Below, one piece after another: positions 5,068 through 39,258 of a stretch of DNA of 64,000 nt (positions are counted from its first letter, which is position 1; every line of letters begins with the position of its first letter). The stretch comes from Candidatus Doudnabacteria bacterium RIFCSPHIGHO2_12_FULL_48_16 (GTDB taxonomy: Bacteria; Patescibacteriota; Doudnabacteria; UBA920; O2-02-FULL-48-8). Below the pieces are notes generated by a model that worked only from the letters and a program-made list of their open reading frames with translations, was not told the DNA's origin and did no database searches. The DNA is taken from NCBI GenBank assembly GCA_001780035.1, contig MFEY01000005.1, positions 40,354 to 104,353 on the forward strand. Reading direction: 5' to 3'. The translations under genes were made by a program, and so were the position numbers.

Positions 5068-5172
5068 ACCCCGTTAGAAGTAAAAAAATAGTAACTGCTC
5101 TCTCGGAGGTGAATAATTTTTTATATCTTAATTCGATTATATTTTAATGTCTTCAGAAACTTCTAACGGGGT
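5068..5172. repeat. inverted-repeat (MITE-like) element, copy A
   Basis: Perfect 14-bp TIRs: accccgttagaagt at 5068-5081 and acttctaacggggt at 5159-5172, around an AT-rich 77-bp core. The right TIR overlaps the 5' end of the GT2 gene. Confidence 0.7.
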
Positions 5173-5872
5173 GAAATACCAAAAAGTCAGCATTGTCATT
5201 CCCGTTTACAACGAACGAGCAACGATTGAGCAGGTCTTGGCTCAGGTTCGGGCGGCGTCGACTCTTGGTTTGGAAAAAGAAATCATTCTGGTGGATGATT
5301 GTTCCACCGACGGCACGAGAGAATTTTTGGCAACTTTAATCGATGAAAATTTTAAAGTTTTTTTGCAGGATAAGAACACGGGCAAGGGCGGGGCGCTCCA
5401 TTATGGATTTGAACAAGCCAGCGGGGATATCGTGATCATCCAGGATGCGGATTTGGAGTATGATCCGGCCGATATCCAGAAAATTTTAGAGCCGTTTATG
5501 AAAAATGGCGCCGAGGTCGTCTACGGATCCCGCTACCTTCAGCCGAGCGTCGGATTAAAATTTTGGCACAGTTTTTTTAATAAACTCTTTACTCAAGTTA
5601 GTAACCTTTTGATCGGCCAGAAAATTACCGACATTATGACTTGTTACAAAGCTTTTAGCCGTAAGGCGATTGGCAGTTTCGTCCAAAAGCTGCAATCGCA
5701 GCGATTTGGGTTTGAGCCGGAAGTGACGGCGCGGGTCAGCCAGGCCGGTTTTAGAATTGTCGAAGTTCCGGTCTCATACCGCCCGCGGTCGCACACCGAA
5801 GGTAAGCATATGAATTTAAAAGGCCAGCTAGAATCGCTGGCCGCCTTGATCAAATACAGTTTATTTGGTTAG
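5147..5872 (+). CDS. family 2 glycosyltransferase (Dpm1/polyprenol-phosphate mannose synthase-like)
   Basis: VSIVIPVYNE...DDCSTDGT...IQDADLEYDP is the GT2 DxD signature. The native start may be the GTG at 5171 (MKYQKVSIVIP), directly after the TIR. The listed ATG at 5147 lies inside the element. Confidence 0.85.
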   Translation: MSSETSNGVKYQKVSIVIPVYNERATIEQVLAQVRAASTLGLEKEIILVDDCSTDGTREFLATLIDENFKVFLQDKNTGKGGALHYGFEQASGDIVIIQDADLEYDPADIQKILEPFMKNGAEVVYGSRYLQPSVGLKFWHSFFNKLFTQVSNLLIGQKITDIMTCYKAFSRKAIGSFVQKLQSQRFGFEPEVTARVSQAGFRIVEVPVSYRPRSHTEGKHMNLKGQLESLAALIKYSLFG

Positions 5873-6639
5873 GAAATTTTACGATAGCGATAAACGGCCA
5901 GCGGCACAAACACAATCAGGAGCGCCGCGGCCCAAATTAGGGAATACCAGACATTGTCGCCCACCGGGGTGCCCAACGATAAAGCCCGGACAGTATTGGT
6001 CGTATAACTGATCGGATTGTGTTCGGCGAACCATTTGACTGGGCCGGATAAGGTATTGGTGGGCACGAAAATCGAACTGGCGAAAACGAGCGGGAAGACC
6101 CAAATAAATCCGGCGGTTTGGGCGATTTCGACGTTTTTGACAGCCAGTCCGATGGTCGCAGAAACCCAGGAAAAGGCAAAGCCGAACAAGAGCGTCAAAA
6201 GGATGGCCAGGAAATATTTGAAGAATCCATGCTCAATGCGAAATCCGATGGCGTAACCCACCAAAGTCATAACGATGATGACGAAAAAATTGCGAATCGT
6301 TTCAGAAATTGTTCGGCCGGCCAGGACCGCGGAGCGGGCCATAGGCAGGGAGCGGAACCGGTCAATCATGCCTTTGGACAAGTCATCAGCCAAGCCCACG
6401 CCAGTCATCATGGCGCCGAAGATCACGGTCTGCACGATAATTCCCGGAATCAAGTAATTGATGTATTTCGTATCCGTGTGAATCGCGCCGCCAAAGACGT
6501 AGGCAAAGAGTAGGACAAACATTACAGGTTGGATGAAAGAAAACACGATTAACTGCGGCATGCGGCGGTAGCGCAGGAGGTTGCGTTTGACCATAATCAA
6601 AATGTCAGTGAGAGTTCTATTCATTGGATTGGGTGCCAT
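5869..6639 (-). CDS. ABC-2 family transporter permease
   Basis: Six-TM ABC-2 type permease, overlapping the ATPase gene upstream. Confidence 0.8.
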   Translation of the reverse strand: MAPNPMNRTLTDILIMVKRNLLRYRRMPQLIVFSFIQPVMFVLLFAYVFGGAIHTDTKYINYLIPGIIVQTVIFGAMMTGVGLADDLSKGMIDRFRSLPMARSAVLAGRTISETIRNFFVIIVMTLVGYAIGFRIEHGFFKYFLAILLTLLFGFAFSWVSATIGLAVKNVEIAQTAGFIWVFPLVFASSIFVPTNTLSGPVKWFAEHNPISYTTNTVRALSLGTPVGDNVWYSLIWAAALLIVFVPLAVYRYRKIS

Positions 6640-7717
6640 GACCGGTTAATTTCATAAACACATCGTCGAGACTGGGCCTGCGCAGAATAATATCAGAGAG
6701 TTTCAGTTGCGCGCTATCGAGGCGGCGAACTACTTCCACCAGGATTGATGGGCCTTGGCTAGTGGGCATGATCACAATGCCATTACTAGAATTGGCCTGC
6801 GGCTCACCATCTCCGAATTCTTTTATCAGCTCCGCGGCTTGACTGACGTCGTCGTGATTGGTCATGTGCAACTCCAATACATCTCCGCCGACTTGTTTTT
6901 TGAGTTCATTGGCAGTGCCTTGAGCGATGATGTGTCCGTGATCAATGACGAAGATATGATTGGCAAGCTGATCGGCCTCTTCCATGTATTGGGTGGTCAG
7001 CAGCACCGTGGTGCCTTCCTCCACCAATTCCCGGATAACATTCCAGAGCGTAAAGCGGGAGCGGGGATCCAGGCCGGTGGTCGGTTCATCCAAGAATAAA
7101 ATTTTAGGGTGGTTAACCAGGCTTGCAGCCAAATCCAACCGGCGGCGCATCCCACCAGAATAAGTTTTGACCGGCCGGTCAGCGGCGTCTTCTAAATCAA
7201 ATTGTTTGAGCAATTCGGCGGCCCGCGCTTTGGCTGTGGCTGGATTCAGGTGATAAAGTTGGCCGACCATGTCCAAATTTTCCCGGCCGCTCAAGACTTC
7301 ATCCACGGCCGCGTATTGGCCGGCCAGACCGATAGCAGAGCGCAGTTTCTGGGGTTGCGTCACGACATTTAACCCATTGACCGTGGCTTCGCCGGAAGTG
7401 GGCAATAGCAGTGTGGCGAGAATTCGAACCAAGGTCGTTTTGCCAGCGCCATTGGGCCCGAGCAGGGCTGTGACAGCACCACGCTTAACTTCCAGACTGA
7501 TATTATCGAGTGCTTTGGTTTTGTCGTATTGCTTGCTGATACCGCGCACGGAAATAATTGCATCGGCTGATGCGCCAGCGGGGCGAGGCGGTTCCAAAAC
7601 AAATTCCAAGATTTCATGAGCTTGCCAGCCAGCATCGGTGAGAGCTTTCATGATCTGTTCATTCGTGAGCCCGTGGTGACGAGCTTCTTTGATATATTGT
7701 GTAACTTGATGAGACAT
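6617..7717 (-). CDS. ABC transporter ATP-binding protein with extra N-terminal ~45-aa helical module
   Basis: Walker A GPNGAGKTT, signature YSGGMRRRL and Walker B ILFLDEPTTGLD. The N-terminal QYIKEARHHGLTNEQIMKALTDAGWQAHEI module recurs in ORF 16214..16834. Confidence 0.85.
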   Translation of the reverse strand: MSHQVTQYIKEARHHGLTNEQIMKALTDAGWQAHEILEFVLEPPRPAGASADAIISVRGISKQYDKTKALDNISLEVKRGAVTALLGPNGAGKTTLVRILATLLLPTSGEATVNGLNVVTQPQKLRSAIGLAGQYAAVDEVLSGRENLDMVGQLYHLNPATAKARAAELLKQFDLEDAADRPVKTYSGGMRRRLDLAASLVNHPKILFLDEPTTGLDPRSRFTLWNVIRELVEEGTTVLLTTQYMEEADQLANHIFVIDHGHIIAQGTANELKKQVGGDVLELHMTNHDDVSQAAELIKEFGDGEPQANSSNGIVIMPTSQGPSILVEVVRRLDSAQLKLSDIILRRPSLDDVFMKLTGHGTQSNE

Positions 7718-7797
7718 AGGGTATAATTGTATCCGGTTAGCGAGAGATTCGCAAGATCTTTAAAAAGGTGACCAGATATGTTAAAATAAATTGCTTT

Positions 7798-7871
7798 TGG
7801 GGAGTAGCCAAGCGGTAAGGCAACGGACTCTGAATCCGTCATCGTAGGTTCGATCCCTACCTCCCCAGCCA
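7798..7871 (+). tRNA. tRNA-Gln (anticodon CUG)
   Basis: Hand-folded cloverleaf. Acceptor stem tggggag/ctcccca, anticodon stem acgga/tccgt with loop ctCTGaa, T-arm gtagg-ttcgatc-cctac, and an encoded CCA. Confidence 0.8.
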
Positions 7872-7945
7872 AATAATCTTTTTATTGTGGGCGACCGAGG
7901 ATCGTTAAGAGCAACTTATTTATTTGGATTAAATCAAAATATTAT

Positions 7946-8752
7946 ATGGACATCGCTTTCATTAGTAGGACCAGTGGAGAAAAAATAAGTGACGATTTAA
8001 ATGAACGCTTGGATGAAATTGAGAAAGTAACCGGTCATAAAATTGCGGTGTATATTTTGTCTGGGTTTGATTTTGATGATGAGATTAATAAATCAAAGAA
8101 ATTATCTATTGAGATAATTAAAGTAGACGATCCGATAAGTCCTGTATCAATAAATTCTGTGCTAGAGTATATGAATAAGACAAGGAATGATCCCGAGGCG
8201 TTGTTTATCTTTTCGCAAGAAACTGTATTTACTACAGAGAACATACAAGCGCTCATTACAGAACTGCAAAATAAAGAAACATTATTAGTCGCTGGATACA
8301 AATTTGAGATTGTTGAGGATCGTGGCAAAATCAATCAAAAATTGAACGATGAGCTTAAAAGCTATTATGCAAACGAAGATTTAATTGCATATCGTGTACC
8401 TTGGAACACATGTGCGATATGGAACTATGACTTGTTTAAACAATATATTGGTAAGTTTGATGAAATAACAATGGGGAGATATCCTTTCTTTCAATTTCCA
8501 GTCACTATAGATGGGGTCTCCAGTTTAACAGATCATAAGGGTATGGAGGACGGCTTGGCTATTGCAAAAGCTGCTTCACAATCGAGAAATATTCATTTTA
8601 AATTGCTCCCAACGGCATTGCCTTGGAAAGTAACTGAAGATAAAATAAATAACCATCGTAAAAAACTGGCCAGGAAAGATTATGTCATGAGGAACTTCAT
8701 GGCCATGAGAAATTATTCAATAGAGGCTTTAGAAGCCGCCGAAGTAAAATAG
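7946..8752 (+). CDS. hypothetical protein in an AT-rich islet next to tRNA-Gln
   Basis: 268-aa ORF that is visibly more AT-rich than its neighbours. No confident family assignment. Confidence 0.5.
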   Translation: MDIAFISRTSGEKISDDLNERLDEIEKVTGHKIAVYILSGFDFDDEINKSKKLSIEIIKVDDPISPVSINSVLEYMNKTRNDPEALFIFSQETVFTTENIQALITELQNKETLLVAGYKFEIVEDRGKINQKLNDELKSYYANEDLIAYRVPWNTCAIWNYDLFKQYIGKFDEITMGRYPFFQFPVTIDGVSSLTDHKGMEDGLAIAKAASQSRNIHFKLLPTALPWKVTEDKINNHRKKLARKDYVMRNFMAMRNYSIEALEAAEVK

Positions 8753-8762
8753 ATTGTAATAA

Positions 8763-9899: not shown

Positions 9900-9904
9900 C
9901 AACC

Positions 9905-10531
9905 TTGGAAAAGAAAGTTCTGCTTAAAAAAATCGTCGGCGTGACTCTGATCATATTGGGGGCCATTTCGGTGTTGACGCCTTTTACGCCGTTTGGCTGG
10001 CTGATTTTTGTGGGGCTTGGTTTTTTGGGTGTTAGGATCGGCTTTTGGGCTCGAATTAAAAGTTATTTTAACCGATGGCGGACGAATGGCGGACGAATGG
10101 CGGACGAAATAATCATCAAGTTAAAGCCGGGCGACTCTTTGCATACCGTTCACAGCGCATTGATTCCAATCTTGACGCGAGCCAAAACTGGGACGAGACT
10201 GGGTTATTGCGCCGGCCTGGTCAGTTCGGAAGGGTCGGAGCATGTGACCAAAAATTTTGAGCGCCTGGTCAGATTTGCTCGCCATTTGGAGCAGTTGCAT
10301 GGCTTTGCCGTTTTTTCCAGCGGCGATATTTTTCGGCCCGAAGTGTTGGAAATCGTCAAACACTCGCCCGAACATGATTTTTATCAATTTTGGCGCAACG
10401 TCCTGAGCAGCGGTCTGGTTACCGATGTGTTCATGACCCCGAGGTGGGAGCGATCGAGAGGGGCAATGGACGAGCACGAAACAGCCAAGAAGCTCGGAAT
10501 AGCGATTTATTATTTGGATTTTGAAATCTAA
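9905..10531 (+). CDS. membrane-anchored DUF4406/nucleoside 2-deoxyribosyltransferase-like protein
   Basis: Two N-terminal TM helices and a C-terminal ...MTPRWERSRGAMDEHETAKKLGIAIYYLD. It contains a 3 x 11-bp tandem repeat. Confidence 0.45.
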   Translation: MEKKVLLKKIVGVTLIILGAISVLTPFTPFGWLIFVGLGFLGVRIGFWARIKSYFNRWRTNGGRMADEIIIKLKPGDSLHTVHSALIPILTRAKTGTRLGYCAGLVSSEGSEHVTKNFERLVRFARHLEQLHGFAVFSSGDIFRPEVLEIVKHSPEHDFYQFWRNVLSSGLVTDVFMTPRWERSRGAMDEHETAKKLGIAIYYLDFEI

Positions 10532-10535
10532 AACT

Positions 10536-10559
10536 AAAAATCCCGTTATCGGGATTTTT
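10536..10559 (+). terminator. intrinsic terminator; palindrome resembles abutted TIR cores
   Basis: aaaaatcccg-ttat-cgggattttt followed by a T-run. The stem carries the same tcccgtta/taacggga core as the repeat family. Confidence 0.5.
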
Positions 10560-10804
10560 AGTCAGTATGCGTGGTGTCCATGTTTGGCTTGTCGAACTTA
10601 TTTATATAGAAGGCATAACCGCCTTAAGGGTTGGACCGCAAATCATGGACTGGCGCATACGCGTTTCATCCTTTGTTGCATCCATTTCTCCTTTCCATAA
10701 GCATCGTAAAAAGTTATAATTATTTCGTCAACTTTGACATTTAAGCGCTCGTGTTTTGTAATCCAGAAATAGCTGCCGTTTAAAACTGAAAATTTACTGG
10801 TCTT

Positions 10805-10834
10805 TTGACAAGCCACTGCTTACAGGAGTAAAAT
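10805..10834 (+). promoter_or_regulatory. candidate sigma70-like promoter upstream of rarA
   Basis: TTGACA at 10805-10810, an 18-nt spacer, then TAAAAT at 10829-10834. Confidence 0.3.
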
Positions 10835-10889
10835 TAAAGATAGGGAATTTACCTGTGGACAGCGGCATTGGCGCCGCTTTATTTTTTTA

Positions 10890-12131
10890 ATGGAGAGGGG
10901 AGTTCTAAGCAAAAGAAACTCAAAGCAAATGGAACCGTTAGCATCAAAGATTCGACCCAAAAACCTGGAAGAATTTATCGGGCAAGCGCATTTGGTCGGC
11001 CTTGATAGGCCGTTAAGAATCGCCATCGAGAACAAGCATTTGTTTTCCTTCATTTTTTGGGGACCGCCGGGCGTGGGCAAGACGACCCTGGCCAAAATTT
11101 ATGCCAAAGCTCTGAATGCCGACCTGTTTGAATTGTCCGCAGTTTCATCTGGTAAAGATGATGTCCGGCAGATTGTGAACCCCGTTAGAAGTAAGACGCC
11201 TGGGACGTCTGCCGATATGTTTACATACCGGACTTCTAACGGGGTGAATGCCAACACGGCCAAACCGAAAGTCTTGTTTCTGGACGAAATCCATCGGTTC
11301 AACAAAGCCCAGCAGGATTACTTGCTGCCGTTTGTCGAAAAAGGAGAAATCACTCTGATCGGCGCAACTACGGAAAATCCCAGCTTCGAGATTATCCCGG
11401 CGTTGCTGTCTCGCTGCCGGGTGTTTGTCCTGCATGAATTTTCGGCCGAAGAAATGTCAAAAATCATTGACCGCACCGGAGTCAAGCTCGATAAAAAATC
11501 CAAAGAATGGCTGGTCAATATGGCCAACGGCGATGCGCGGCAGGCAATCACTATGTTGGAGAATACGGTTAATTTTTACGGCAAAGCTACAGTTGAGAAC
11601 CTGAAGAACACGCTGCAGAGCAAATTCCTGCGGTTCGATAAGAAGGGCGAAGAGCATCACAACACGATTAGCGCGTTTATCAAATCCATGCGGGCCAGCC
11701 AGCCGGATGCAGCGCTGTATTATTTGGCCCGGATGATTGAATCAGGCGAGGATCCGAAATTTATTGCCCGGCGCATGGTCGTGTTCGCATCCGAAGACAT
11801 TGGATTGGCGCAACCCACGGCTTTGGTCGTCGCCAATGATGTGTTCCGCGCCGTTGAAACTATAGGCTTGCCGGAGGCGGCGGTCAATCTGGCGCACGGC
11901 GTGGCGTATCTGGCTTTGGCCCCTAAGAATCGCGATTCTTACAATGCTTATTATGAAGCGCTCGATGACGTCAAAGAGCTGGGCAATCTGCCGATCCCGA
12001 TGATGATCCGCAATGCCCCGACCAAGCTTATGAAGGATTTGGGCTACCACCAAGGTTATGAATTGTATCCAAAGGAAGATCTTTTGCCGGAGCAGCTGAA
12101 AGGCAAAAAATATCTGAAGCGAAAAAAATGA
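10890..12131 (+). CDS. rarA: replication-associated recombination protein A (AAA+ ATPase)
   Basis: FWGPPGVGKTTLA, LFLDEIHRFNKAQQD and GATTENPSFE. It carries a 23-aa in-frame insertion, which is repeat copy B. Confidence 0.9.
   Translation: MERGVLSKRNSKQMEPLASKIRPKNLEEFIGQAHLVGLDRPLRIAIENKHLFSFIFWGPPGVGKTTLAKIYAKALNADLFELSAVSSGKDDVRQIVNPVRSKTPGTSADMFTYRTSNGVNANTAKPKVLFLDEIHRFNKAQQDYLLPFVEKGEITLIGATTENPSFEIIPALLSRCRVFVLHEFSAEEMSKIIDRTGVKLDKKSKEWLVNMANGDARQAITMLENTVNFYGKATVENLKNTLQSKFLRFDKKGEEHHNTISAFIKSMRASQPDAALYYLARMIESGEDPKFIARRMVVFASEDIGLAQPTALVVANDVFRAVETIGLPEAAVNLAHGVAYLALAPKNRDSYNAYYEALDDVKELGNLPIPMMIRNAPTKLMKDLGYHQGYELYPKEDLLPEQLKGKKYLKRKK
11179..11245. repeat. inverted-repeat (MITE-like) element, copy B, in-frame inside rarA
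   Basis: Perfect 14-bp TIRs: accccgttagaagt at 11179-11192 and acttctaacggggt at 11232-11245. The flanking dinucleotide GA is duplicated, so 67+2 = 69 bp adds 23 codons. Confidence 0.7.
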
Positions 12132-12152
12132 TTTCTATGGCTTTTTTTGATT

Positions 12153-12716: not shown

Positions 12717-12748
12717 AAATAAAACCGCCCAGGTAGGGCGGCTTTGGT

Positions 12749-14125
12749 TTAGTAAGAGCTGCGGTCGTCGCGATAGCGGATGCGGTTCGCATCAAACCCT
12801 TGATCCTGCGGTCGGCTGGGATCGCGGCGGGGAAACTGGTCGCGCGATTTATAGCGGCCGGGTTTTCTAAACCCAGGGCGGGCAGGGCGATCAGAGGAGC
12901 GGTTGCCCTGTTCGCGCACATAATCATGACGCGGCTGGCCCGGGCGGCTGGGCATTGGACGGGCTTCGCGTCTGAATTCAGCTCGGCCCGTGGTGGGAAT
13001 CGATTGCAACCCTTCAGCTTGCTTGACCGGAAGGGTAATTCTGATTAGGCGTTCAATACTGCGAACATCGTAGCGCTGGTCCGGCGTGGCGAAGGAAATC
13101 GCTTTGCCAGCCAGGCCCGCCCGGCCAGTACGGCCGATGCGATGGACGTAATCTTCCGGGTTTTCCGGCAGATCGTAGTTGATCACGAGCTCAATGCCGC
13201 TAACGTCGATGCCGCGGGCCGCAATATCGGTGGCGATCAACACGCGGTAACGGCCGATTTTGAACCCTTCCAGAGCTTCTTTGCGCTGGCCCAGGGAGCG
13301 GTTGGAATGGATTTCAGAAGAGGTGTGGCCCATATTGCGGACGGCATGGGCGATTTTTTTGGCGCCAAATTTCGTCCGGGTAAAAACCAGGATGCTGCCT
13401 TTATGTTCGGTTAAAATCTTGGTCAGCAGAGAAACTTTCTGGTCGCGGGCGACGAAGAAAACTTCCTGGGCCACGTCGCGCGCGGCGGTGCCGGATGGCG
13501 CCACTTCGATTCGGATCGGGATGGTCATGTATGAGGTGGCGATCTGAACGATGGAGTTCGGCATGGTGGCCGAGAACAGCATGGTCTGTCTGGCTTTGGG
13601 CACTTTGGCCAGGATGCGGCGGATCTGGGGCTCAAAGCCCATGTCGAGCATGCGGTCGGCTTCGTCCAAAACCAAAATCGTGACCGAAGACAGATCGATT
13701 GTTTTTTGTTCCAGATGATCGTTGATGCGACCGGGGGTGCCGATGATAATATGTGGATTTTGGCGCAGGCTGCGGATCTGTCTGTTGATTGGTTCGCCGC
13801 CGATTAAGACGGAAGTTTTGAGTCCGACTTGGCGGCCGATTTTTTGCAGAGCCTCGTCGACTTGCAACGCAAGTTCGCGGGTCGGTAAAATGATCAGGCC
13901 GCGGCCTTTGTTTTGAGCCAGGCGCTGAATCATCGGAATGCCAAAAGCCATGGTCTTGCCAGTTCCGGTTTGCGCAATGCCCATGACATCTTTGCCTTCA
14001 ATCGCAATCGGAATCGATTGGAACTGAATCGGGGTCGGTATAGTGAACCTAAGTTGTTGGAGGATTTCAAACAGCTTGGGAGCTATTCCTAACCCTTCGA
14101 AAGAAGTGTTGGTCGGATTGACCAT
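12749..14125 (-). CDS. DEAD-box ATP-dependent RNA helicase
   Basis: AQTGTGKT, DEAD (LVLDEADRMLDMGF), SAT and HRIGRTGRAG, with an R/D-rich C-terminal tail. Confidence 0.9.
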   Translation of the reverse strand: MVNPTNTSFEGLGIAPKLFEILQQLRFTIPTPIQFQSIPIAIEGKDVMGIAQTGTGKTMAFGIPMIQRLAQNKGRGLIILPTRELALQVDEALQKIGRQVGLKTSVLIGGEPINRQIRSLRQNPHIIIGTPGRINDHLEQKTIDLSSVTILVLDEADRMLDMGFEPQIRRILAKVPKARQTMLFSATMPNSIVQIATSYMTIPIRIEVAPSGTAARDVAQEVFFVARDQKVSLLTKILTEHKGSILVFTRTKFGAKKIAHAVRNMGHTSSEIHSNRSLGQRKEALEGFKIGRYRVLIATDIAARGIDVSGIELVINYDLPENPEDYVHRIGRTGRAGLAGKAISFATPDQRYDVRSIERLIRITLPVKQAEGLQSIPTTGRAEFRREARPMPSRPGQPRHDYVREQGNRSSDRPARPGFRKPGRYKSRDQFPRRDPSRPQDQGFDANRIRYRDDRSSY

Positions 14126-14251
14126 AAAAAATGAGTTTCTTCCGCCGTCGCTAAAGCTATGGCGGATCCGCCGAAGCTTTACGCGTAGGCGGAGACCCGA
14201 ACGTCCAAGGGCCAGAAATACAGCGCAATTTGGTATCGAGTCGATTATTTA

Positions 14252-14347
14252 TCCCGTTTAGAAATTTTTCTAAAAAGGGGATTGATTAAGATTAACCGTT
14301 GTCGTAATTAGCGATAATTGTATGCTAATCACTTATTTCTAACGGGA
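14252..14347. repeat. inverted-repeat element, copy C
   Basis: tcccgtttagaaat at 14252-14265 pairs with atttctaacggga at 14335-14347. The element sits in the divergent intergenic region between the helicase and the GT-C gene. Confidence 0.6.
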
Positions 14348-14444
14348 TTTAACTAACAACTAATTATACTCCTTTTTGGCGATTTTGTCAACCCTCACAA
14401 CAAATCCTCGCTAAAAGCGATAAATTGGTGCTAAAATATTAATC

Positions 14445-16834: not shown

Positions 16835-16838
16835 ACCC

Positions 16839-30126: not shown

Positions 30127-30154
30127 AAACACCCCAGACCCGTCTGGGGTGTTT
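30127..30154 (+). terminator. intrinsic terminator (member of repeated terminator family)
   Basis: aaacaccccagac-ccg-tctggggtgttt followed by aaatttg. Both flanks match the terminator at 36128. Confidence 0.6.
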
Positions 30155-30330
30155 AAATTTGTTCAAAATCCCGCGCCATTTTGCTACATTTAAAAGTAAT
30201 TGCTTAATTTGAAATGTCCGCAGCAATGGCGCGAATGTTATACGGCGTATTTAACCAGTGATAAATATTATACGTCGTAGAAGATACAATGTGCGACGTG
30301 CTGTTTGTTTCTGAATGGGGCTCCCCTGGG

Positions 30331-31080
30331 CTACTTCTCAACCACAATCATGGCCTTGGGCCGGCCTGTTTGGTCTTCGTGATACCCCGTCTTGTAATCG
30401 ACAAGGGCATTAAAGAAAATATTGTAGCTATATCTGTAGCCTTTGCCATTGCGTGTGCCAGGATCATTGGTTATGACTTGTTTCTTCGCCTCATCGTATC
30501 CTATAACCACGAGCATATGCGTCAGTGGCCCGGCACCGGTGAAATTAGGGTTATTGAGCTTCTGGCCATTGGCCGGAGTAATGACTAACTTCCCTGCCGC
30601 CAGTTCTTTTTTGATGTCTTCTATAGTGATCCCTGACTTTACAGTATGGTTATCGTAGTGATAATAATCCGTCATGAGCTTGGCCGTATCGGCTGCGCCC
30701 AGGTCCAGGTAGTTACCATAAGTTTCTTTTTCAAACTCAGACATGGCAATAATGGTTTTTTCCGCTTCAGAAGCTGAGATGGAAGTTTTCCCTTGGGTCC
30801 AGGCGTAGGCCATGATCAACGAAGCCTCTTCGCAACCATCCTGTTGGCGCGGATCAGACCAGTTGGCCGTCGGCGCTTGGGCAGTAAAAGGCACGGTCAA
30901 GAGGACATAACCCGGCAAGGCGCTCGCCTGCCCGGCCGGAGTTGACGGGCTTTGGCTAGCGGGACTCGTTTCGTTCTTGGGTTGATCCTTGGGCTGATCA
31001 TTTGGTTTGGGTTTGAATATCAAAACCGCTGCCAAAGCCAGAGCGACCATGATCAAAATTGTTAAATTGATTTTTTTCAT
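30331..31080 (-). CDS. secreted C39-like (BtrH/YvpB-type) cysteine peptidase domain protein
   Basis: Signal peptide, a Cys in QQDGCEEAS and a His in THMLVVIGYD. Confidence 0.55.
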   Translation of the reverse strand: MKKINLTILIMVALALAAVLIFKPKPNDQPKDQPKNETSPASQSPSTPAGQASALPGYVLLTVPFTAQAPTANWSDPRQQDGCEEASLIMAYAWTQGKTSISASEAEKTIIAMSEFEKETYGNYLDLGAADTAKLMTDYYHYDNHTVKSGITIEDIKKELAAGKLVITPANGQKLNNPNFTGAGPLTHMLVVIGYDEAKKQVITNDPGTRNGKGYRYSYNIFFNALVDYKTGYHEDQTGRPKAMIVVEK

Positions 31081-31176
31081 CCCGTTATGATTAGTTAAAT
31101 TTAATTAACATTTTATGGCGCTGCATTGATTATAATTTATTAGTATATTGCCCGCTATGTCAAATGTCTAACGGGA
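31080..31176. repeat. inverted-repeat element, copy D
   Basis: tcccgttatga at 31080-31090 pairs with gtctaacggga at 31166-31176. It fills the intergenic gap exactly, and the left TIR abuts the ATG of the C39 peptidase gene. Confidence 0.55.
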
Positions 31177-31177
31177 T

Positions 31178-32335
31178 TCATCTGCGCAACTGCTTAATTA
31201 TTTTAGTTAATATATTCACGGCGGATTTAATTTCCGACGGCTTGGTATTCTGCCCGAGCGTCAATCTGATTGTGGCGGCATCGGCTTGGCCGATTTTGCC
31301 CAGCGCCTCGATGACATGGGACGGCACGGATGAGCCGGAGACGCAGGCCGAACCGGTAGAGGCGGCAATGCCAGCTAGATCCAAAGCGGTCATCAGGGCA
31401 TCCTGGTCGACTCCATAAACAGTCAGGCTGGCATTGTTGGCGGCCCGCTCCTCCCCTGTCGGGCCATTTAATTCAACGTTTTTGATTCTTAGAGCGTTAT
31501 CAATCAGCAAATCGCGCAGCGTGGAAATTTTTCGCGCTTGATCCTGCCGATTTTCCAATGGGCCCAACAGCTCGATGGCTTTGGCAAAGCCCATAATTCC
31601 AGCGGTATTTTGGGTCCCGGGGCGTTTGCCGTATTCCTGTGAGCCGCCAAACGTCAGATTTGCCAGTTTAAGGCCGGATTTGATGTAGAGGGCTCCTATT
31701 CCCTTCGGGCCATAAATTTTGTGCGCGGACAGTGTTAAAAGGTCGCAGCCGAGTTTTTCCACGTTGCAATTGTAAAACTGGGCGGCCTGGACCGCGTCGA
31801 CGTGGAAGATAGGTTTGAGGCCCTTGATTGATTGGCCGATTTCTCGGATCGGCAAAATGGTACCGATTTCGTTGGAAACAAAAATCACGCTCACAAGCTC
31901 GGTATTTTTTTTCACGGCTTTTAAAATTTGATCCGGCCTAATTTTGCCGTTTTTGTCCGGCTTGACGAAGGTGGCCTCAATCACTCCCCTCTTTTCGAGT
32001 TCCTTAACCGTATTGTAAACGGATTGGTGTTCAAGTTGCGTGGTCACGACGTGCGGTTTGGATTTATTTTTTTGAACCGCATAATTGATAACGCCTTGAG
32101 TGGCCAGGTTGTTGGCTTCGGTTGCCCCGGAGGTGAAAACAATTTCCTGCGGTTTGGCGTTTAGAAATTTGCCAACTGCAGCGCGCGCAAAGTCAATTTT
32201 AGCTCGCGCATTCTGACCTTCCCGGTGGGAGGAACTCGGATTGCCAAAGTGCTGCAATTCAAAATCCCGCATGTGTTGGGCAACGTGCGGGTTGACCGGG
32301 GTTGTGGCAGCATGGTCCAAATAGATTCGTCTCAT
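31178..32335 (-). CDS. cysteine desulfurase (NifS/IscS family)
   Basis: MRRIYLDHAATTP N-terminus and the PLP-lysine context SAHKIYGPKGIGALY. The track start at 32428 is probably an over-extension. Confidence 0.9.
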   Translation of the reverse strand: MRRIYLDHAATTPVNPHVAQHMRDFELQHFGNPSSSHREGQNARAKIDFARAAVGKFLNAKPQEIVFTSGATEANNLATQGVINYAVQKNKSKPHVVTTQLEHQSVYNTVKELEKRGVIEATFVKPDKNGKIRPDQILKAVKKNTELVSVIFVSNEIGTILPIREIGQSIKGLKPIFHVDAVQAAQFYNCNVEKLGCDLLTLSAHKIYGPKGIGALYIKSGLKLANLTFGGSQEYGKRPGTQNTAGIMGFAKAIELLGPLENRQDQARKISTLRDLLIDNALRIKNVELNGPTGEERAANNASLTVYGVDQDALMTALDLAGIAASTGSACVSGSSVPSHVIEALGKIGQADAATIRLTLGQNTKPSEIKSAVNILTKIIKQLRR

Positions 32336-32351
32336 CAGAGGTATTTTAGCA

Positions 32352-32813
32352 TTGACCGTGAATAAAGAAAATGCTATGATTTTTTGTTCCCCAAACGGAG
32401 GAACAAGGCGCCAGGGAGAGCGCCACACAATGCTGAGAATAATGGTAATCCGTCCGGTGCATCAGCCGATTACGGCGGACGCGGTCCCCTGTGGCTGCGG
32501 TGGGAGCCGGAGCCACGGCTACGTCCGGATGCGGCAGGAAGATCGGAAATTCGGACCCTTCTACTCCGTCGAGGCCGGATCGGACCTGGTGGAAGCGCTG
32601 GCCGAGGGAGCGGTGATCAACGCGGAAACCGACGCCTACATTCGCCGGCAGCTGGAGGTGTTCCACATGCCGGATCTGCGGATCGACAGCGACGAGCGGG
32701 CCAAGAAACAGGTAGCGCTCCAGGTGCAGATAGCCGAGGGGCTTGCCCTGATGCGGAGGATCGCGGCCGGGTTCGATCGCAGTGGCAGTTGGTCTGGCTC
32801 GGGACGCTTCTAG
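32352..32813 (+). CDS. hypothetical protein in GC-rich patch (doubtful)
   Basis: 153-aa ORF in a visibly GC-rich 0.5-kb patch, with ORFs on both strands. No family recognised. Confidence 0.25.
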   Translation: MTVNKENAMIFCSPNGGTRRQGERHTMLRIMVIRPVHQPITADAVPCGCGGSRSHGYVRMRQEDRKFGPFYSVEAGSDLVEALAEGAVINAETDAYIRRQLEVFHMPDLRIDSDERAKKQVALQVQIAEGLALMRRIAAGFDRSGSWSGSGRF

Positions 32814-32873
32814 CGCTCTCGTAGACGTGAACACAGGATGGGTCCGCTGGGCTCATCCTGTTCATTATTTATA

Positions 32874-33230: not shown

Positions 33231-33261
33231 TATGCGTTTATCCTAGGGAGGGTTTATACTT

Positions 33262-34583: not shown

Positions 34584-34863
34584 GAAAGCCGGCGGCTCCA
34601 CAGCTTTAGGCCGCGACTCACAATCCAAGCGATTAGGCATCAAGAAATTTGGCGGCCAGACCGCCGAGATTGGCAATATCATAGTCCGCCAGCGCGGGAC
34701 CAAGTGGCACCCGGGCAAGAATGTCCGCATCGGCGGCGATGATTCCATCTATGCCGTGGCAGTCGGAATCGTTAAATTCACTTCCAAGAAAGTCCGCGGG
34801 TTTGATGGTAATCTGCATTTACGTAGGTTCGTCCACGTCCTGCCCGCAGAAGCCAAGAAATAA
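34573..34863 (+). CDS. rpmA: 50S ribosomal protein L27
   Basis: [28 protein letters not shown]...[10 protein letters not shown]. Confidence 0.9.
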
Positions 34864-34880
34864 TTATATAGTTCGAAGAC

Positions 34881-34903
34881 AACCCCGCCTCTGGCGGGGT
34901 TTT
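34881..34903 (+). terminator. intrinsic terminator after rpmA
   Basis: aaccccgcc-tctg-gcggggtt followed by ttg. Confidence 0.6.
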
Positions 34904-34965
34904 GAGTTGCTTAAATTTTATCCCGGTGCTTTAATAACCTTAGGTATTAATTTAGAGCAAGTTAT

Positions 34966-36108
34966 ATGAAAAAATTTAAAGTATTCGGTCTTGCAGCGGT
35001 CGTGTTGGCATTGGCCGCTTCTCCGGTTCTGGCCGCGGAGTTTATTGCGCCGGAAAGCAAAACAGATGCCAATATCTCGACTCTGCAGCAGGACGTGCAT
35101 AAAAATCTTTATATTGCGGGCGCCGCGGTGACGATCAACGGCAAAATCCAGGGCGACCTGGCTGCGGCTGGCGGCGTCGTGACTGTGAACGGTGATGTCG
35201 AAAAAGGCCTATTGCTCGCCGGCGGCAATCTGAATCTCAACGCTGCTGTGGGTGAAAATGCCCGCATCGCCGGCGGCAATGTTTCCATCAATGCTCCGGT
35301 CGGCGGCGATTTGCTGGTCGGCGGCGGGAACATTACAATTGCCCAAAAAGCCAAAGTGGGTGGCGATCTTGTTATCGGCGGGGGCAATGTCTTGCTGGAC
35401 GCGGATGTGGCCGGCAATGTGAAAATCGGCGGGGGCAATGTTACAATCAATGGCAAAGTCAGCGGCAACGTCGAGGTTATGGCCAATCAAAATCTAACGT
35501 TCGGCCCGGCCAGTCAGGTTCTGGGGAAAGTTAGCTTCAAGGGTCCGCAGGAAGCGGTAGTCAAACCAGGCGCGAAGGTGGGCGTGATTACTTACACTCA
35601 TATCAACAAGCGAGTGGCCCACCGGAGCGGCATAATCGGATTGTTGATCATTGGCAGCTTGTTTAAACTGATTATGCTGCTGGTTGCGGCCGTAGTTTTG
35701 GCCTGGCTCTTGCCCAGTAAGATTTCAGCCGTTGTCGCCGAAGCCAAAGCCAAGCCCTGGCACAGCCTAGGATTCGGGGTCTTGGTGGTAATTCTCTCCC
35801 CCATCTTGGGAGTGATTCTGATGGCAACGGTTCTGGGGATTTATCTGGGAATGATTGTGTTTATGATCTTTGGCCTGCTTATGATTATTTCGGCCATTCT
35901 CTCTCTGTTCTATGTCGGTAACCAGGTTTGGAGCTGGTATCACCGCGATGCAATCGCCAATCGCTGGCGCGATCTAGGGCTTGGCGCGCTGATCACGCTG
36001 ATTCTCGGGTTTATCCCGATCGTGGGCTGGGTAATCCTCCTGGTCATCTGGCTCATTACGCTGGGGGCGCTTAAAAGATACACTTATCAGGAAGCCTTCG
36101 GTAAATAA
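34966..36108 (+). CDS. secreted/membrane protein with beta-helical GGN repeats (bactofilin/DUF4097-like) and C-terminal TM domain
   Basis: Signal peptide, a repeated xGGNVxIN/VGGDLxV pattern, and four C-terminal TM helices. Confidence 0.5.
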   Translation: MKKFKVFGLAAVVLALAASPVLAAEFIAPESKTDANISTLQQDVHKNLYIAGAAVTINGKIQGDLAAAGGVVTVNGDVEKGLLLAGGNLNLNAAVGENARIAGGNVSINAPVGGDLLVGGGNITIAQKAKVGGDLVIGGGNVLLDADVAGNVKIGGGNVTINGKVSGNVEVMANQNLTFGPASQVLGKVSFKGPQEAVVKPGAKVGVITYTHINKRVAHRSGIIGLLIIGSLFKLIMLLVAAVVLAWLLPSKISAVVAEAKAKPWHSLGFGVLVVILSPILGVILMATVLGIYLGMIVFMIFGLLMIISAILSLFYVGNQVWSWYHRDAIANRWRDLGLGALITLILGFIPIVGWVILLVIWLITLGALKRYTYQEAFGK

Positions 36109-36127
36109 GGCAAAAACTAAACACCCC

Positions 36128-36161
36128 GTCTCTCGCGAGAGGCGGGGTGTTTAAATTTGAT
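36128..36161. terminator. bidirectional intrinsic terminator (convergent genes)
   Basis: aaacaccccgtctctcgcgagaggcggggtgttt hairpin with a self-complementary ctcgcgag core. It abuts the pyrG stop codon. Confidence 0.6.
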
Positions 36162-37793
36162 CTATTTTTTAATGCTGGCTTTTATAAATTCACAGAATAA
36201 TGGGCCAGGGTTTAAGGGCCTTGATTTAAATTCCGGGTGGAATTGCACGCCCAGGAAGAACGGATGATCGGCCAACTCGACGATTTCCACCAGGTGGCCA
36301 TCGGGTGTGGTGCCGGAAAAGATCATGCCGGCGGCTTCAAACTGCTTGCGGTATTTGTTATTAAATTCATAGCGATGGCGGTGGCGCTCGGAAATCTTGC
36401 GCGCGCCATAGGCTTTTTCTGCGATTGAACCGGGCTTGAGGACACAGTCCCAGGCACCGAGGCGCATGGTGCCGCCGTATTCTTTTTTCAAAAGCTTCTT
36501 TTCCTGATCCGGCATGATATGAATCACCGGATGAGGAGTTTCGTCATCAACCTCCACGGTGTGGGCGTTTTTGAGCTTCAGCACATTGCGCGCGAACTCG
36601 ATGGTCGCCATCTGCATGCCATAGCACAGTCCCAGATAAGGAATCTTGTTCTCACGGGCGTAAGTGATGGCCTGAATCATGCCTTCCACTCCTCGCTTGC
36701 CGAAGCCGGGCGTAATCACAATCCCATGCATATCGTCGAGGTGCTTTTCGGCGCCGTCCTTCTCGATTTTTTCGGAGTCGATCCAGTGCAGCACCGGTTT
36801 GGCCTTGTTATGCCAGCTGCCGTGCTTGAGAGCTTCAATAATCGAAACATAAACATCGGCGAGGTTGTAATTGCCGGTGCCGAAGTATTTGCCAACCACG
36901 CCGATATGAACTTCTTTTTTGACCGTTTTCATGGTCCGGACCAGATTTTTCCATGGCTGCAGGTCTTTGCGGCCGGGCGGCAGCTTGAGTTTTTCCAGGA
37001 TTTTCTCGCCAAAGCTCTGGTTCTGCAATCCCAGGGGCACTTCGTAAATTGAGGGTAGATCCGGGTTGGAAATCACGTCTTCTTTGCGGACGTTGCAAAA
37101 CAGAGCGATGCGCTCCTTGCGCTTGTCGTCTACGGCGTGTTCGGCGCGTGCCACCACAAAATCCGGCTCAATCCCCAGCGAGTTGAGCAGCCGCACCGAC
37201 TGCTGCACGGGTTTGGATTTCATTTCCCCGAGATTGCTAGGGATCGGCAGATAGGCGACGTGAACCTGGATGACATCGCCGGGCGCACGAAGTTTCATGA
37301 GCCGGGAAGCTTCGAAGAAAATGCCGTTTTGATATTCGCCCACGGTGCCACCCAGTTCAATGATAACCACGTCGGCATCCTTGCCCGCGAGTTTAAACCG
37401 CCGGATAATTTCATCGGTAATGTGCGGAATGGCTTCTACGTCCTCGCCGTTATATTCAAAAGCCCGTTCCTTGCGTAAAACTTCGGAATAAACCTGGCCG
37501 GTGGTAATATAGTTTACCCGGCTCAGATCCCGGCCCAGAAACCGCTCGTAGTGGCCGAGGTCTTGGTCGGTTTCGACCCCATCATTGGTCACGAAAACCT
37601 CACCGTGCTCCTGGGGCCGGATAGTGCCAGCGTCCAAGTTGAGATACATATCCACCTTGACCGGCGAAACTTTATAGCCTTTGCTTTTTAAAATGGCGGC
37701 AATTGATGCCGCTGTAATGCCCTTGCCGAGACCCGAAATGACTCCCCCGGAAACAAAGATATATTTGGTGCTGCGTTTGAGTTTGGCGCTCAT
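36162..37793 (-). CDS. pyrG: CTP synthase
   Basis: YIFVSGGVISGLGKGITAASIA N-terminus and a C-terminal GATase domain (GLCYGMQ). Confidence 0.95.
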   Translation of the reverse strand: MSAKLKRSTKYIFVSGGVISGLGKGITAASIAAILKSKGYKVSPVKVDMYLNLDAGTIRPQEHGEVFVTNDGVETDQDLGHYERFLGRDLSRVNYITTGQVYSEVLRKERAFEYNGEDVEAIPHITDEIIRRFKLAGKDADVVIIELGGTVGEYQNGIFFEASRLMKLRAPGDVIQVHVAYLPIPSNLGEMKSKPVQQSVRLLNSLGIEPDFVVARAEHAVDDKRKERIALFCNVRKEDVISNPDLPSIYEVPLGLQNQSFGEKILEKLKLPPGRKDLQPWKNLVRTMKTVKKEVHIGVVGKYFGTGNYNLADVYVSIIEALKHGSWHNKAKPVLHWIDSEKIEKDGAEKHLDDMHGIVITPGFGKRGVEGMIQAITYARENKIPYLGLCYGMQMATIEFARNVLKLKNAHTVEVDDETPHPVIHIMPDQEKKLLKKEYGGTMRLGAWDCVLKPGSIAEKAYGARKISERHRHRYEFNNKYRKQFEAAGMIFSGTTPDGHLVEIVELADHPFFLGVQFHPEFKSRPLNPGPLFCEFIKASIKK

Positions 37794-38233
37794 AGTGCTG
37801 TTATCTTCAACCTAATTTTAAAATTAATTGTTTCGTTCAATTTTATTAAAACTTCGTGCAATCCCAGATGCTTGATCGGTTTTTCGATCACAATCTTATT
37901 CGCGTCCAGGCTGTCCGGGAATTTTTGATTTATCGCGCTGGCGATTTCATCTTCGTGGACGGCCGCAAATAAACTGTTGCTGGAGGCCCGCGCCTTAATT
38001 TCAAATTCCTGATGGCTGAGTTTGTTTTTGAGCTGTTGCTGGAATTCCTGGATCCGGGTAACTTTGGCTTGTTTTTCTTTCTCTTCCTTCTGGACTTTGG
38101 TCAAGACTTCTGTCGTGGCCGGCAGGGCCAGATGCCGAGGAATGAGGAAGTTTCTCGCATGGCCATCGGAGACATCCTTGACGTCGCCCGTTCGGCCCAG
38201 CCCTTTGACATCCTTAGTCAGAAGTATTTTCAT
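37790..38233 (-). CDS. rplI: 50S ribosomal protein L9
   Basis: MKILLTKDVKGLGRTGDVKDVSDGHARNFLIP. Confidence 0.85.
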   Translation of the reverse strand: MKILLTKDVKGLGRTGDVKDVSDGHARNFLIPRHLALPATTEVLTKVQKEEKEKQAKVTRIQEFQQQLKNKLSHQEFEIKARASSNSLFAAVHEDEIASAINQKFPDSLDANKIVIEKPIKHLGLHEVLIKLNETINFKIRLKITAL

Positions 38234-38243
38234 ACTACAATCA

Positions 38244-39161
38244 TTATACCTTCAAGTAGCGGCGCATGGCAATACTGGAAGCAATGGCCGAAAGGACAAT
38301 GCTGGCGGCGAGATTCACCAGCAGGATGCGCCAGAACAGAGCGCTGATCAGGCTGGAGCCCAGAACCTGAATTGAAAGGAATTGCTCAATCCGGCCGGAC
38401 AGCAGAATCAGCAGAATCAGGATAATGAGCGAAGTTAGAACCGTGGCGATCAGGGAATAAAGAATGCCCTCGATCATAAACGGCCAGCGGATATACCAGT
38501 TGGTGGCGCCGACGAGGCGCATGATCTCCACTTCCTCCCGGCGGTTGTAGATCGTGAGGCGGATGGTATTGAAAGTTACCATAACAGTTACGACCATAAA
38601 GATGGCGGCCAGGAGGATGCCGAACCTGGTAATGAACTGGATGATCCGATAAAGCTTGTTGATGACCGTCTGGTTGTCGCGGACATTTTGAAAGTAAGGC
38701 GCGTAGCGCTGGCCCTTGAGGGTGTCGTAAATTCGGGAATAATCGGTCAGATCGTAAGCCTTCACCGCAATGGAACCGGTTAAGGGGTTTTCAGCGTCGG
38801 TAAATTCATTTAAGCTCTCAATCCAGTTGGGTTCGTTTTGGTGGATCAGCTTAAACTGCGCGATCGCTTCTTCTTTGGTCGTGTAATTGACTTCCCTCAC
38901 GCCCTCTAGGCCTTTTATTTCCGTAATGACGTTCTGGACTTCCTTATCCGTGGTTTGCTGGTTGAAATACGCGGTCACCACGCCAATCTTATCTGTGGAA
39001 TTTTGGATGGCGACCGAGGTTAAAGCATAAAGGACAATTATTATGGAAATAATAAACAAGGTAATGGCGACCATGGAAGTGGCCGCGATTGAAATCCAAA
39101 TGTTCCGCAGAAAATTTGTTAAACCCGATTTAATCAAGCGTTTCGTCTCCAAGGTTGTCAT
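38244..39161 (-). CDS. ftsX: cell division ABC transporter permease FtsX
   Basis: FtsX topology and the FtsX C-terminal motif region, directly downstream of ftsE. Confidence 0.85.
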   Translation of the reverse strand: MTTLETKRLIKSGLTNFLRNIWISIAATSMVAITLFIISIIIVLYALTSVAIQNSTDKIGVVTAYFNQQTTDKEVQNVITEIKGLEGVREVNYTTKEEAIAQFKLIHQNEPNWIESLNEFTDAENPLTGSIAVKAYDLTDYSRIYDTLKGQRYAPYFQNVRDNQTVINKLYRIIQFITRFGILLAAIFMVVTVMVTFNTIRLTIYNRREEVEIMRLVGATNWYIRWPFMIEGILYSLIATVLTSLIILILLILLSGRIEQFLSIQVLGSSLISALFWRILLVNLAASIVLSAIASSIAMRRYLKV

Positions 39162-39162
39162 A

Positions 39163-39258
39163 TCCCGTTAGAAAATTGATAATAATATGATATTTTTTTC
39201 GATGCTTATATTATAAATTTAATGCTGTTAATTTAACTTTGAGCTATTTCTAACGGGA
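39163..39258. repeat. inverted-repeat element, copy E, exactly filling ftsE-ftsX gap
   Basis: tcccgttagaaaat at 39163-39176 pairs with atttctaacggga at 39246-39258. One end abuts the ftsE stop and the other abuts the ftsX ATG. Confidence 0.6.

Follow-up and report, generated by a model that had tools for sequence, protein, structure and literature searches.

Five inverted-repeat elements among housekeeping genes

The window analysed here is a 64-kb stretch of contig MFEY01000005.1 from a Doudnabacteria genome, and all positions are given in window numbering. Gene annotation covered about 46 kb of it (roughly 1-22150 and 40300-62300), and Pfam was applied to the genes flanking two of the elements described below (D and E); these annotated genes are ordinary housekeeping genes. 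Dispersed in the window, at a density of one copy per 13 kb, are five short elements bounded by the same inverted repeat, which are the subject of this report and which we label A to E in coordinate order (Table 1). C has a DEAD-box helicase gene on one side and a divergent gene on the other, D occupies the entire 97-bp gap between a class-V aminotransferase gene (31178-32428, minus strand) and a C39-like peptidase gene (30331-31080, minus strand), and E occupies exactly the 97-bp gap between ftsE and ftsX.

A first-pass annotation of the window, made from the letters alone, had listed these five inverted pairs; we confirmed its coordinates, and those of C, D and E were exact. The 14-mer ACCCCGTTAGAAGT matches perfectly at 5068, 5159 (minus), 11179 and 11232 (minus), the ends of A and B, and with two mismatches at 14335 (minus) and 39246 (minus). 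These six matches compare with 0.23 expected from shuffles, and none of 100 shuffles reached six. The shorter string TAACGGG occurs 10 times in the 64 kb, nine of them inside the five inverted pairs, and a degenerate arm-pair search of the window returned A to E and no further copy. Chance is ruled out by the shuffles and assembly artefact by many independent assemblies; in one of these (L141; L numbers refer to our fetched loci) A, B and C have the same orientation as in the window.

The terminal repeats of A and B had been described as 14 bp long; they are indeed perfect and identical, but their outermost A/T belongs to the duplicated target, leaving a repeat of 13 bp. The cores had been described as not conserved, and core-to-core alignment of the five found none related to another. 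The idea that cores were captured from the host genome was dropped, as the cores of A to E matched nothing else, either in the window or among the fetched loci.

Table 1. Positions of elements A to E and of the short sequences that flank them (ORF, open reading frame; +/-, strand)
Feature	Position	Size	Sequence	Context
Element A	5069..5171	103 bp	C-CCCGTTAGAA-GT ... AC-TTCTAACGGG-G, AT-rich core	Between H+-PPase and GT2 genes
A left flank	5065..5068		TATA	Mismatches right flank
A right flank	5172..5175		TGAA	
Element B	11180..11244	65 bp	Perfect 13-bp ends	In-frame in rarA (ORF 10890-12131, +)
B left target-site duplication	11176..11179		TGAA	
B right target-site duplication	11245..11248		TGAA	
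Element C	14252..14347	96 bp	Left arm with 1-nt insertion (CCCGTTTAGAA)	5' region of DEAD-box helicase gene (12749-14125, -)
C left target-site duplication	14248..14251		TTTA	
C right target-site duplication	14348..14351		TTTA	
Element D	31080..31176	97 bp	Decayed arms CCCGTTATGA / GTCTAACGGG	
D left target-site duplication	31076..31079		TTCA (TGAA on gene strand)	
D right target-site duplication	31177..31180		TTCA	Includes TGA stop of aminotransferase gene
Element E	39163..39258	96 bp		Between ftsE (39259-39936, -) and ftsX (38244-39161, -)
E left target-site duplication	39158..39162	5 bp	TCATA	Holds ftsX ATG (minus strand)
E right target-site duplication	39259..39263	5 bp	TCATA	Holds ftsE TGA stop (minus strand)

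Target duplications and empty sites

A target-site duplication is present at four of the five window copies, and for B, C and E we found presence/absence with exact boundaries at orthologous sites. At B, exactly the 23 residues NPVRSKTPGTSADMFTYRTSNGV are missing from every one of the 10 RarA homologues in the alignment (identity 77-90% over aligned positions), which read ...I-V-N-A-N-T... across the site; the element (65 nt) and one copy of its duplication (4 nt) together make 69 nt, hence the 23 codons. At the DNA level the B insert is lacking in the rarA genes of L139 and L140, the latter with a single TGAA, and the closest rarA homologue has a single GTGAATGCC where the window reads GTGAA[C CCCG...CGGG G TGAA]TGCC. 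Predicted empty alleles are, for example, GTCCGGCAGATTGTGAATGCCAACACG for the B site and AAATACGTCCTATGACAACCTTGG for the E site. The window RarA and a protein of Candidatus Doudnabacteria bacterium RIFCSPLOWO2_02_FULL_49_13 (Patescibacteria, or Candidate Phyla Radiation, CPR) are 100% identical. A different extra segment of about 24 residues is found in another Doudnabacteria RarA (P0056; alignment A2, columns 114-130); it lies a few residues further downstream than the B point, likewise in the region that precedes the Walker B strand, and includes no arm-derived residues. This region of RarA tolerates insertions.

The orthologous helicase intergenic/5' region of L139 precisely lacks C, reading GTTATTTA followed directly by GTTAAC, with one TTTA, where the window has GATTATTTA[T CCCG...CGGG A TTTA]ACTAAC. 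At E, three related Doudnabacteria (L149, L150 and L151) have no element and their ftsE and ftsX overlap by ATGA (...GTCCTATGAC...); the window reads ...GTCCTATGA[T CCCG...CGGG A TATGA]CAACC. For D, reading from the sequence, removal of the element and one TTCA regains an ATGA stop/start overlap. The landing sites in the window are a permissive loop of RarA, two ATGA operon overlaps, one 5' untranslated region and the start of the GT2 gene.

Outside the window, we found nested elements, each with its own duplication, at four loci (L055, L104, L115 and L071). At another (L016), two tandem elements have a common TTCA between them and three TTCA in total, as expected from two hits on one target.

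A 13-bp repeat with covarying arms

We scanned genomes, one per species, with the pattern CCCGTTAGAAR-N55-85-YTTCTAACGGG, which gave at least 119 stretches; from these we extracted 126 non-redundant elements, and the structure is defined on those. A metagenome scan with gaps of 0-12 nt gave at least 120 stretches. Since both large scans demanded exact 10-mer arms and their listings are lower bounds, family size and arm diversity are underestimated, and the sample is skewed to intact arms.

The element is Y-CCCGTTAGAA-R-N ... N-Y-TTCTAACGGG-R, with a 13-bp stem. Ten of the 13 repeat positions were fixed by the search pattern (they are the same in window copies A, B and E), and the remaining three covary. 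Just outside the arms, the left-hand base is Y and the right-hand base R, and they are complementary to each other in 114 of the 126 elements; the two positions on the inner side of the 10-mer are complementary in 91% and 86%, though variable among elements, and further in the values are at background. These complementary variable positions flanking the 10-mer set the length of the repeat, Y-CCCGTTAGAA-R-N, at 13 bp. Pair types were counted in 105 elements, one per locus, with clusters of related cores cut to one member: position 0 is CG in 61 and UA in 35, position 11 is AU in 66 and GC in 32, and position 12 is UA in 55, CG in 15, AU in 11 and GC in 11. None of 500 shuffles gave an arm covariation score as high as that of this set.

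The flanking direct repeat is 4 bp long with the consensus T-N-N-A, and 5 bp once (E). Its central NN is the same on both sides in 84 of the 126 elements, against about 8 expected, and the duplicated 4-mers differ from copy to copy. There is a weaker preference for R preceding the duplication and Y after it, giving the site R-TNNA-Y.

Size range and subfamilies

Extra pairs in the fetched loci, together with viral contigs scanned over five gap ranges, show that cores run from 2 to about 140-145 nt. Whole copies measure 24-166 bp (65-103 bp in the window) and have no coding capacity of their own. The shortest nevertheless carry the marks of insertion: 50 of 122 distinct tiny elements of 24-33 bp, most commonly 27 or 31 bp long, have a perfect 4-bp duplication, against about 0.5 expected. 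One 33-bp hairpin, CCCGTTAGAAGT-AAGACGTC-..., occurs at four loci with four duplications (TAAG, TGTG, TCAA, and CGTG, which is CACG in aligned orientation), so its loop was copied along with the hairpin and is not random filler. The core of B begins with GTAAGACG, as in this 33-bp subfamily, and B therefore looks like an expanded member of it.

Of 148 elements, only 28 have a related core. Conventional subfamilies do exist in some lineages, and their conserved cores are rich in G+C hairpins; a 92-bp conserved-core family is present at unrelated loci in deltaproteobacterial metagenome-assembled genomes (MAGs), and a related family of about 140 bp in sediment metagenomes. The 140-bp elements hold nested hairpins with variant arms of two types, CCCGTTTAGAG...CTCTAACGGG with a TTCG duplication and CCCGTAAGAG...CTCTTACGGG (both at L085-type loci: L251, L259, L263; L239, L252, L271). 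These nested arms indicate a superfamily with several arm types beyond the reach of exact-match scans, and the whole set is a superfamily defined by its ends.

Three further observations concern the smallest copies. At one locus, a 26-bp element has the loop ATTTAT in L167 (5216-5241) and ATAAAT in both L268 (756-781) and L265 (224-249), its center being flipped. Tiny hairpins recur in or near the murD-ftsW-murG part of the dcw cluster in five metagenome contigs (L156, L165, L218, L243 and L260). In the window, a terminator-like palindrome, GACTAAAAATCCCGATAACGGGATTTTTAGTT, lies at 10532-10563, 3' of ORF 9905-10531; the six outer bases of its inner stem (ATCCCG...CGGGAT) are those of the C, D and E ends, and it could be a coincidence or a strongly reduced copy.

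Hosts and distribution

The motif, which the first-pass annotation knew from the window only, proved to be widespread: the same ends occur at 119 or more genome loci in at least 8 phyla, at 120 or more metagenome loci, and on phage contigs too. The hosts include many Patescibacteria lineages, Planctomycetota (Pirellulales, Phycisphaerae and an anammox genome), Omnitrophota, Desulfobacterota/Thermodesulfobacteriota (including one complete chromosome), Nitrospirota, KSB1, uncultured Gammaproteobacteria and one Clostridia MAG. Almost all are uncultured, and many come from groundwater or sediment. Complete genomes with copies include CP113000.1. Patescibacteria (CPR) genomes are small and thought to be poor in mobile elements; here, in a Doudnabacteria genome, copies lie within essential operons and a conserved protein.

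A 30-kb Mu-like phage contig (IMGVR_UViG_3300038429_000794; L126, L127 and L130) carries at least four elements, along with genes for a MuA-type transposase, a MuB-like ATPase, capsid and Mu F. Such a phage is a possible vehicle for host-to-host transfer. We considered its transposase as the mobilizer and rejected it, since the MuA type makes 5-bp duplications on different ends; the phage is a carrier and not the source of the mobilizing enzyme.

Start codons, operon junctions and coding insertions

A start codon at the end of four of the five window copies was part of the first-pass annotation, and all four are there: GTG 5171 at A, the ATG of the C39-like peptidase gene at D, the ATG of ftsX at E and an in-frame GTG in rarA at B. 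The further proposal, that the element delivers or targets translation starts, holds as a statistical association; this has a simple sequence explanation and does not by itself establish a function. Of 230 element ends, 40 (17%, or about one element in three) lie directly against an ATG or GTG that leads into at least 80 open codons, compared with 4.8% of random RTNNAY sites in the same loci (1.1% under the strict requirement of a real gene start). The explanation is that the element ends in R (A/G) while the duplicated target often begins with TG, the commonest duplications being TGAA and its complement TTCA, so that R-TG makes ATG or GTG. Insertion into A-TGAA at a Met-Asn or Met-Lys start would give ...ATGAA-Y[element]R-TGAA..., with a new start and the old ATG left upstream; the old start codon is in fact retained upstream in 31 of 47 start-abutting cases. 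Coupling through a leader peptide, with the old start reading through to the right arm, was considered and found unconvincing, as only about 11 of these 31 cases show it.

Elements that end in G convert an ATG start to GTG, as at the GT2 gene beside A. Here the alternative start GTG 5171-5173 consists of the terminal G of the element and the TG of the flank, and gives the usual short GT2 N-terminus. The public gene call starts at ATG 5147, inside the A core, and the first eight residues of the annotated protein (MSSETSNG) are therefore element-encoded. A strong G+C-rich hairpin (gagggtcgggtgg...ccgcccgaccctg) with a T run after it lies at 5003-5040, about 30 nt upstream of A, within the 525 bp that separate the H+-PPase gene from the GT2 gene; it resembles a terminator, with no annotated gene ahead of it.

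Operon junctions account for 11 of 42 start-abutting copies, the upstream stop being the TGA of a duplicated ATGA or a TAG in the left arm; D, E and a variant copy in L039 are of this type. Among 17 candidate intragenic copies, recognized by a long frame across the junction upon removal of the element, 11 add whole codons, and seven coding copies including that in rarA are open straight through. Since most candidate intragenic copies keep the frame and these seven are read through, removal at the RNA or DNA level is argued against, and on this ground we rejected a reading of the elements as introns or eliminated sequences. Insertions are tolerated at start codons, at operon junctions and in one protein loop.

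The first-pass annotation also suggested that the cores possibly contain promoters. The case for such a role is weak: good sigma70-like matches (10/12) facing the downstream gene were found in D only, of the five cores. A perfect sigma70 consensus, TTGACA-17-TATAAT (12/12), does lie at 14363-14391 (minus) and points toward the DEAD-box helicase gene, but it is just outside C; transcription from it would read through C, which places C in the helicase 5' untranslated region.

Probable insertion of a mobile hairpin

We conclude that the five loci are probably insertions of a non-autonomous mobile 'hairpin MITE' (miniature inverted-repeat transposable element), of which only the 13-bp terminal inverted repeat is conserved. 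Insertion takes place at a loosely palindromic target and creates a short duplication of fixed length, and the elements have spread to unrelated loci and hosts. The first-pass annotation had called them MITE-like, which is borne out by the duplications, the three empty sites, the nested and tandem copies, and the hundreds of copies at unrelated loci in many phyla. Its counter-reading, that the repeats are merely a conserved terminator or leader with no mobility signature, is contradicted by those same duplications and empty sites.

The duplication is fixed at 4 bp and variable in sequence, from which we infer a staggered cut: a transposase-like enzyme would make a 4-bp staggered cut in the double-stranded target, followed by fill-in. 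A staggered cut with a short variable duplication is typical of DDE-type transposases. As none of the copies has a gene of its own, the enzyme has to be supplied in trans. Covariation of the arms at their free positions, together with the existence of 24-33-bp elements that carry duplications although they are too short to loop, suggests that the arms function together as a single paired stem, in hairpin or cruciform form, and not as separate, distant ends. The tips of the element would then be side by side at any loop length, which would explain the unconstrained core.

The stem may also explain why these insertions are tolerated. In RNA it would bring the upstream copy of the duplication, with the old start or upstream stop, beside the downstream copy with the new start; by analogy with two known systems, a transcript stem may in this way keep translational coupling, hence the tolerance at operon junctions and starts. 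In phage T4 genes 38 and 25 the ribosome-binding site is linked to the start codon by a hairpin, and in caulimoviruses a stem is crossed by ribosome shunting.

Several points weigh against the hairpin MITE. First, no enzyme came to light. In about 2 Mb around the copies we found neither a transposase nor a recurrent neighbour protein, and all-against-all clustering of ORFs from the genome loci (at least 119) and about 140 metagenome/viral loci produced housekeeping families only. The first-pass annotation had noted that the window has no transposase, and we agree to the extent that no transposase, recombinase or invertase is among its annotated genes (about 46 kb and the D and E flanks; about 22-40 kb is only partly covered). 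It had also envisaged a full-length autonomous element with the same ends and a transposase, which did not appear in the 2 Mb of flanking DNA; of arm pairs 0.4-5 kb apart, none encloses a transposase. The candidates for an autonomous copy that did have matching duplications were rejected, as what lay between their arms was pyruvate kinase, genes of the dcw cluster or another small element. So was a 686-aa ORF between inverted repeats of about 325 bp in L008, from MAG DX4.bin27, which encodes an Ig-like (Big_5) protein and not a transposase; these repeats (2046-2369 and 4832-5155) each have an embedded copy of the 92-bp element, and the pair could be an invertible or duplicated regulatory region.

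Second, a conventional cut-and-paste complex could hardly accommodate a double-stranded element of 26 bp. Third, the absence of a common core among the five window copies is unusual for one MITE family in one genome, and an identical 10-bp arm across many phyla is unusual for insertion-sequence ends. Fourth, A is the sole copy of the five without a target-site duplication, and a search of the same species protein cluster gave no insertion-free rarA allele, B being apparently fixed in the species.

Alternatives to the proposed hairpin MITE

The first alternative concerns the enzymatic step only: the hairpins may move as single-stranded DNA, cut and joined at the stem base by an HUH-type or other structure-specific nuclease/ligase unlike the classical DDE transposases, which would amount to a novel way of transposing. 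Such a route would account for the covarying free positions, for the 24-33-bp copies that have duplications and are too short to loop two double-stranded ends together, for the loop flipped at one orthologous locus (L167 versus L268 and L265), and for our finding no transposase bounded by these repeats. The variable duplicated 4-mers point instead to a staggered cut of a double-stranded target; to our knowledge the single-strand transposons (IS200/IS605) and the repetitive extragenic palindromic (REP) elements have a fixed target word and no target duplication. No HUH gene was seen, though no genome-wide search aimed at HUH was made. We think single-strand movement unlikely.

Alternatively, the hairpins could be immobile excision footprints, consisting of the 13-bp ends, filler and target duplication that a larger cut-and-paste transposon left behind. 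This would produce conserved termini around a core of arbitrary length, a retained duplication, and no autonomous partner beside any copy. It does not readily produce one tiny hairpin, loop included, at four loci with four different duplications, nor the 92-140-bp conserved-core subfamilies at many unrelated loci, nor hairpins nested in other copies; furthermore no full-length parent was found in the 2 Mb, and most bacteria are without the end-joining repair that excision footprints need. Footprints are, in our judgment, quite improbable.

The first-pass annotation had itself raised an inverton model, in which an invertase flips an AT-rich, promoter-bearing core and so switches neighbouring genes. 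Short inverted repeats around AT-rich cores beside gene starts, sigma70-like matches in D that face the downstream gene, and one tiny loop inverted between contigs are what such a model would predict. However, target duplications and precise empty sites mark the copies as insertions, one copy lies in-frame within coding sequence, and cores of 2-10 nt cannot contain a promoter. A suitably oriented promoter-like match is present in only one or two of the five window cores, A, B and C keep one orientation in an independent assembly, and no invertase was found in the annotated parts of the window. Invertons are thus a very improbable explanation.

Hardly credible, finally, is a vertically inherited regulatory RNA (an intercistronic stabilizer, leader or terminator) that is not mobile DNA at all: the terminal stem does form in folds of all five window copies (z against shuffled sequences of -3.3 to -5.0 for four, and a marginal -1.85 for D), many copies sit at operon junctions and some short versions are terminator-like with flanking A and T runs (L129, L131 and L134), but close relatives have the orthologous sites without the element, the flanking duplications vary in sequence, the neighbour genes are unrelated in many phyla, and the elements have no Rfam match. 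A regulatory role gained after insertion is not excluded.

If the hairpin MITE and its paired stem are taken together, a bolder proposal can be framed, which we consider possible though on balance doubtful: that these elements represent a new class of mobile DNA, a sequence-specific hairpin that can be as short as 24-33 nt and is common to at least eight phyla and their phages. It would be recognized and moved in paired form (hairpin or cruciform) by enzymes of a family so far without a known link to transposition, and its stem in the transcript would join the duplicated stop/start so that insertions into start codons and ATGA junctions little affect translation.

The family of hairpin MITEs shows how little mobility needs, 13 bp repeated in inverse being sufficient, and these genomes retain copies inserted at operon junctions and start codons. 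Annotation is affected, as the elements shift called starts (GT2) and add peptide segments (RarA). The elements can serve as presence/absence markers for strain tracking in groundwater metagenomes, and they trace DNA exchange between very distant phyla and phages. The enzyme, once found, could bring to light a new type of integration guided by hairpins.

Comparison with known elements

The first-pass annotation knew of no described family with these ends, and our searches agree. Rfam gave no element match in the window at gathering thresholds, and none at E<=1 for element E and a conserved-core copy; its only matches in the window are two tRNA genes, at 7798-7868 (plus) and 61726-61798 (minus), both distant from the elements. 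In the literature, the arm strings appeared only in unrelated primers, no relevant paper contained either arm sequence, and topic searches turned up no description of such an element.

Two known types of hairpin sequence were considered and set aside. Integron attC sites belong at the 3' ends of cassettes in an array with an IntI integrase and should have RYYYAAC ... GTTRRRY in this order, and our arms have GTTAGAA ... TTCTAAC in the opposite order; copies are moreover dispersed among housekeeping genes and form no array. The palindromic elements derived from IS200/IS605 (PATE), which insert 3' of a single fixed tetra- or pentanucleotide without duplicating it and whose left and right hairpins differ, do not fit either, since here the flanking 4-mers are variable and duplicated and both ends form a single hairpin.

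The elements resemble MITEs in small size, terminal inverted repeats, a duplication of fixed length, occurrence at multiple loci and empty sites; they differ in that the window copies share no core and no matching autonomous element was found in about 2 Mb of flanks. IS1380/piggyBac transposons have 4-5-bp duplications with T...A ends (TTAA for piggyBac), CC(C) ends and 13-14-bp repeats, a likeness that we offer as a lead only: the target NN is free here, the cores are unrelated, the copies can be very short, and no such transposase was found or linked. REP sequences, with their mosaic (BIME) and doublet (REPIN) arrangements, are likewise short intergenic hairpins in operons, where the hairpin is apparently the recognized unit and the loop is less conserved than the stem. 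REPs have a GTAG-type head, are species-specific, make no duplication, and are tied to a single-copy RAYT gene flanked by REPs; our elements have a variable 4-bp duplication, and no RAYT-like or recurrent neighbour gene was seen.

The Correia elements (NEMIS) of Neisseria are also small and non-autonomous, with inverted repeats and a short fixed duplication, near genes or between cistrons. Their repeats are 26 bp, their conserved core is about 100-155 bp, their duplication is TA and they are confined to Neisseria, whereas our elements conserve only the 13 bp, have a free core, duplicate TNNA and occur in hosts of many phyla. In Correia transcripts the repeats pair to form a hairpin, and the elements can carry promoters (PMC10969869). 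The in-frame copy B in rarA recalls the Rickettsia palindromic elements (RPEs), which are palindromic repeats found in-frame in genes for housekeeping proteins, where their translation adds segments to the protein surface (PMC10969869). Our copies are mostly intergenic, with a sharp definition of ends and duplication and with differing cores. RPE families are conserved sequences of about 100-150 bp with no clear signature of terminal repeat and duplication.

An analogy, as to what is conserved, is with the internal eliminated sequences of ciliates, which are short AT-rich inserts in or between genes, with unrelated interiors and a short terminal inverted consensus plus a direct repeat. Those sequences are removed from the somatic genome, so that reading frames need not be kept; our hosts are bacterial, most candidate intragenic copies keep the frame, and seven are translated through and not removed. 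What is unusual in the hairpin MITEs is that only 13 bp are conserved, that the arms are identical across phyla, that copies of 24-33 bp look functional, and that the end of the element rebuilds a start codon.

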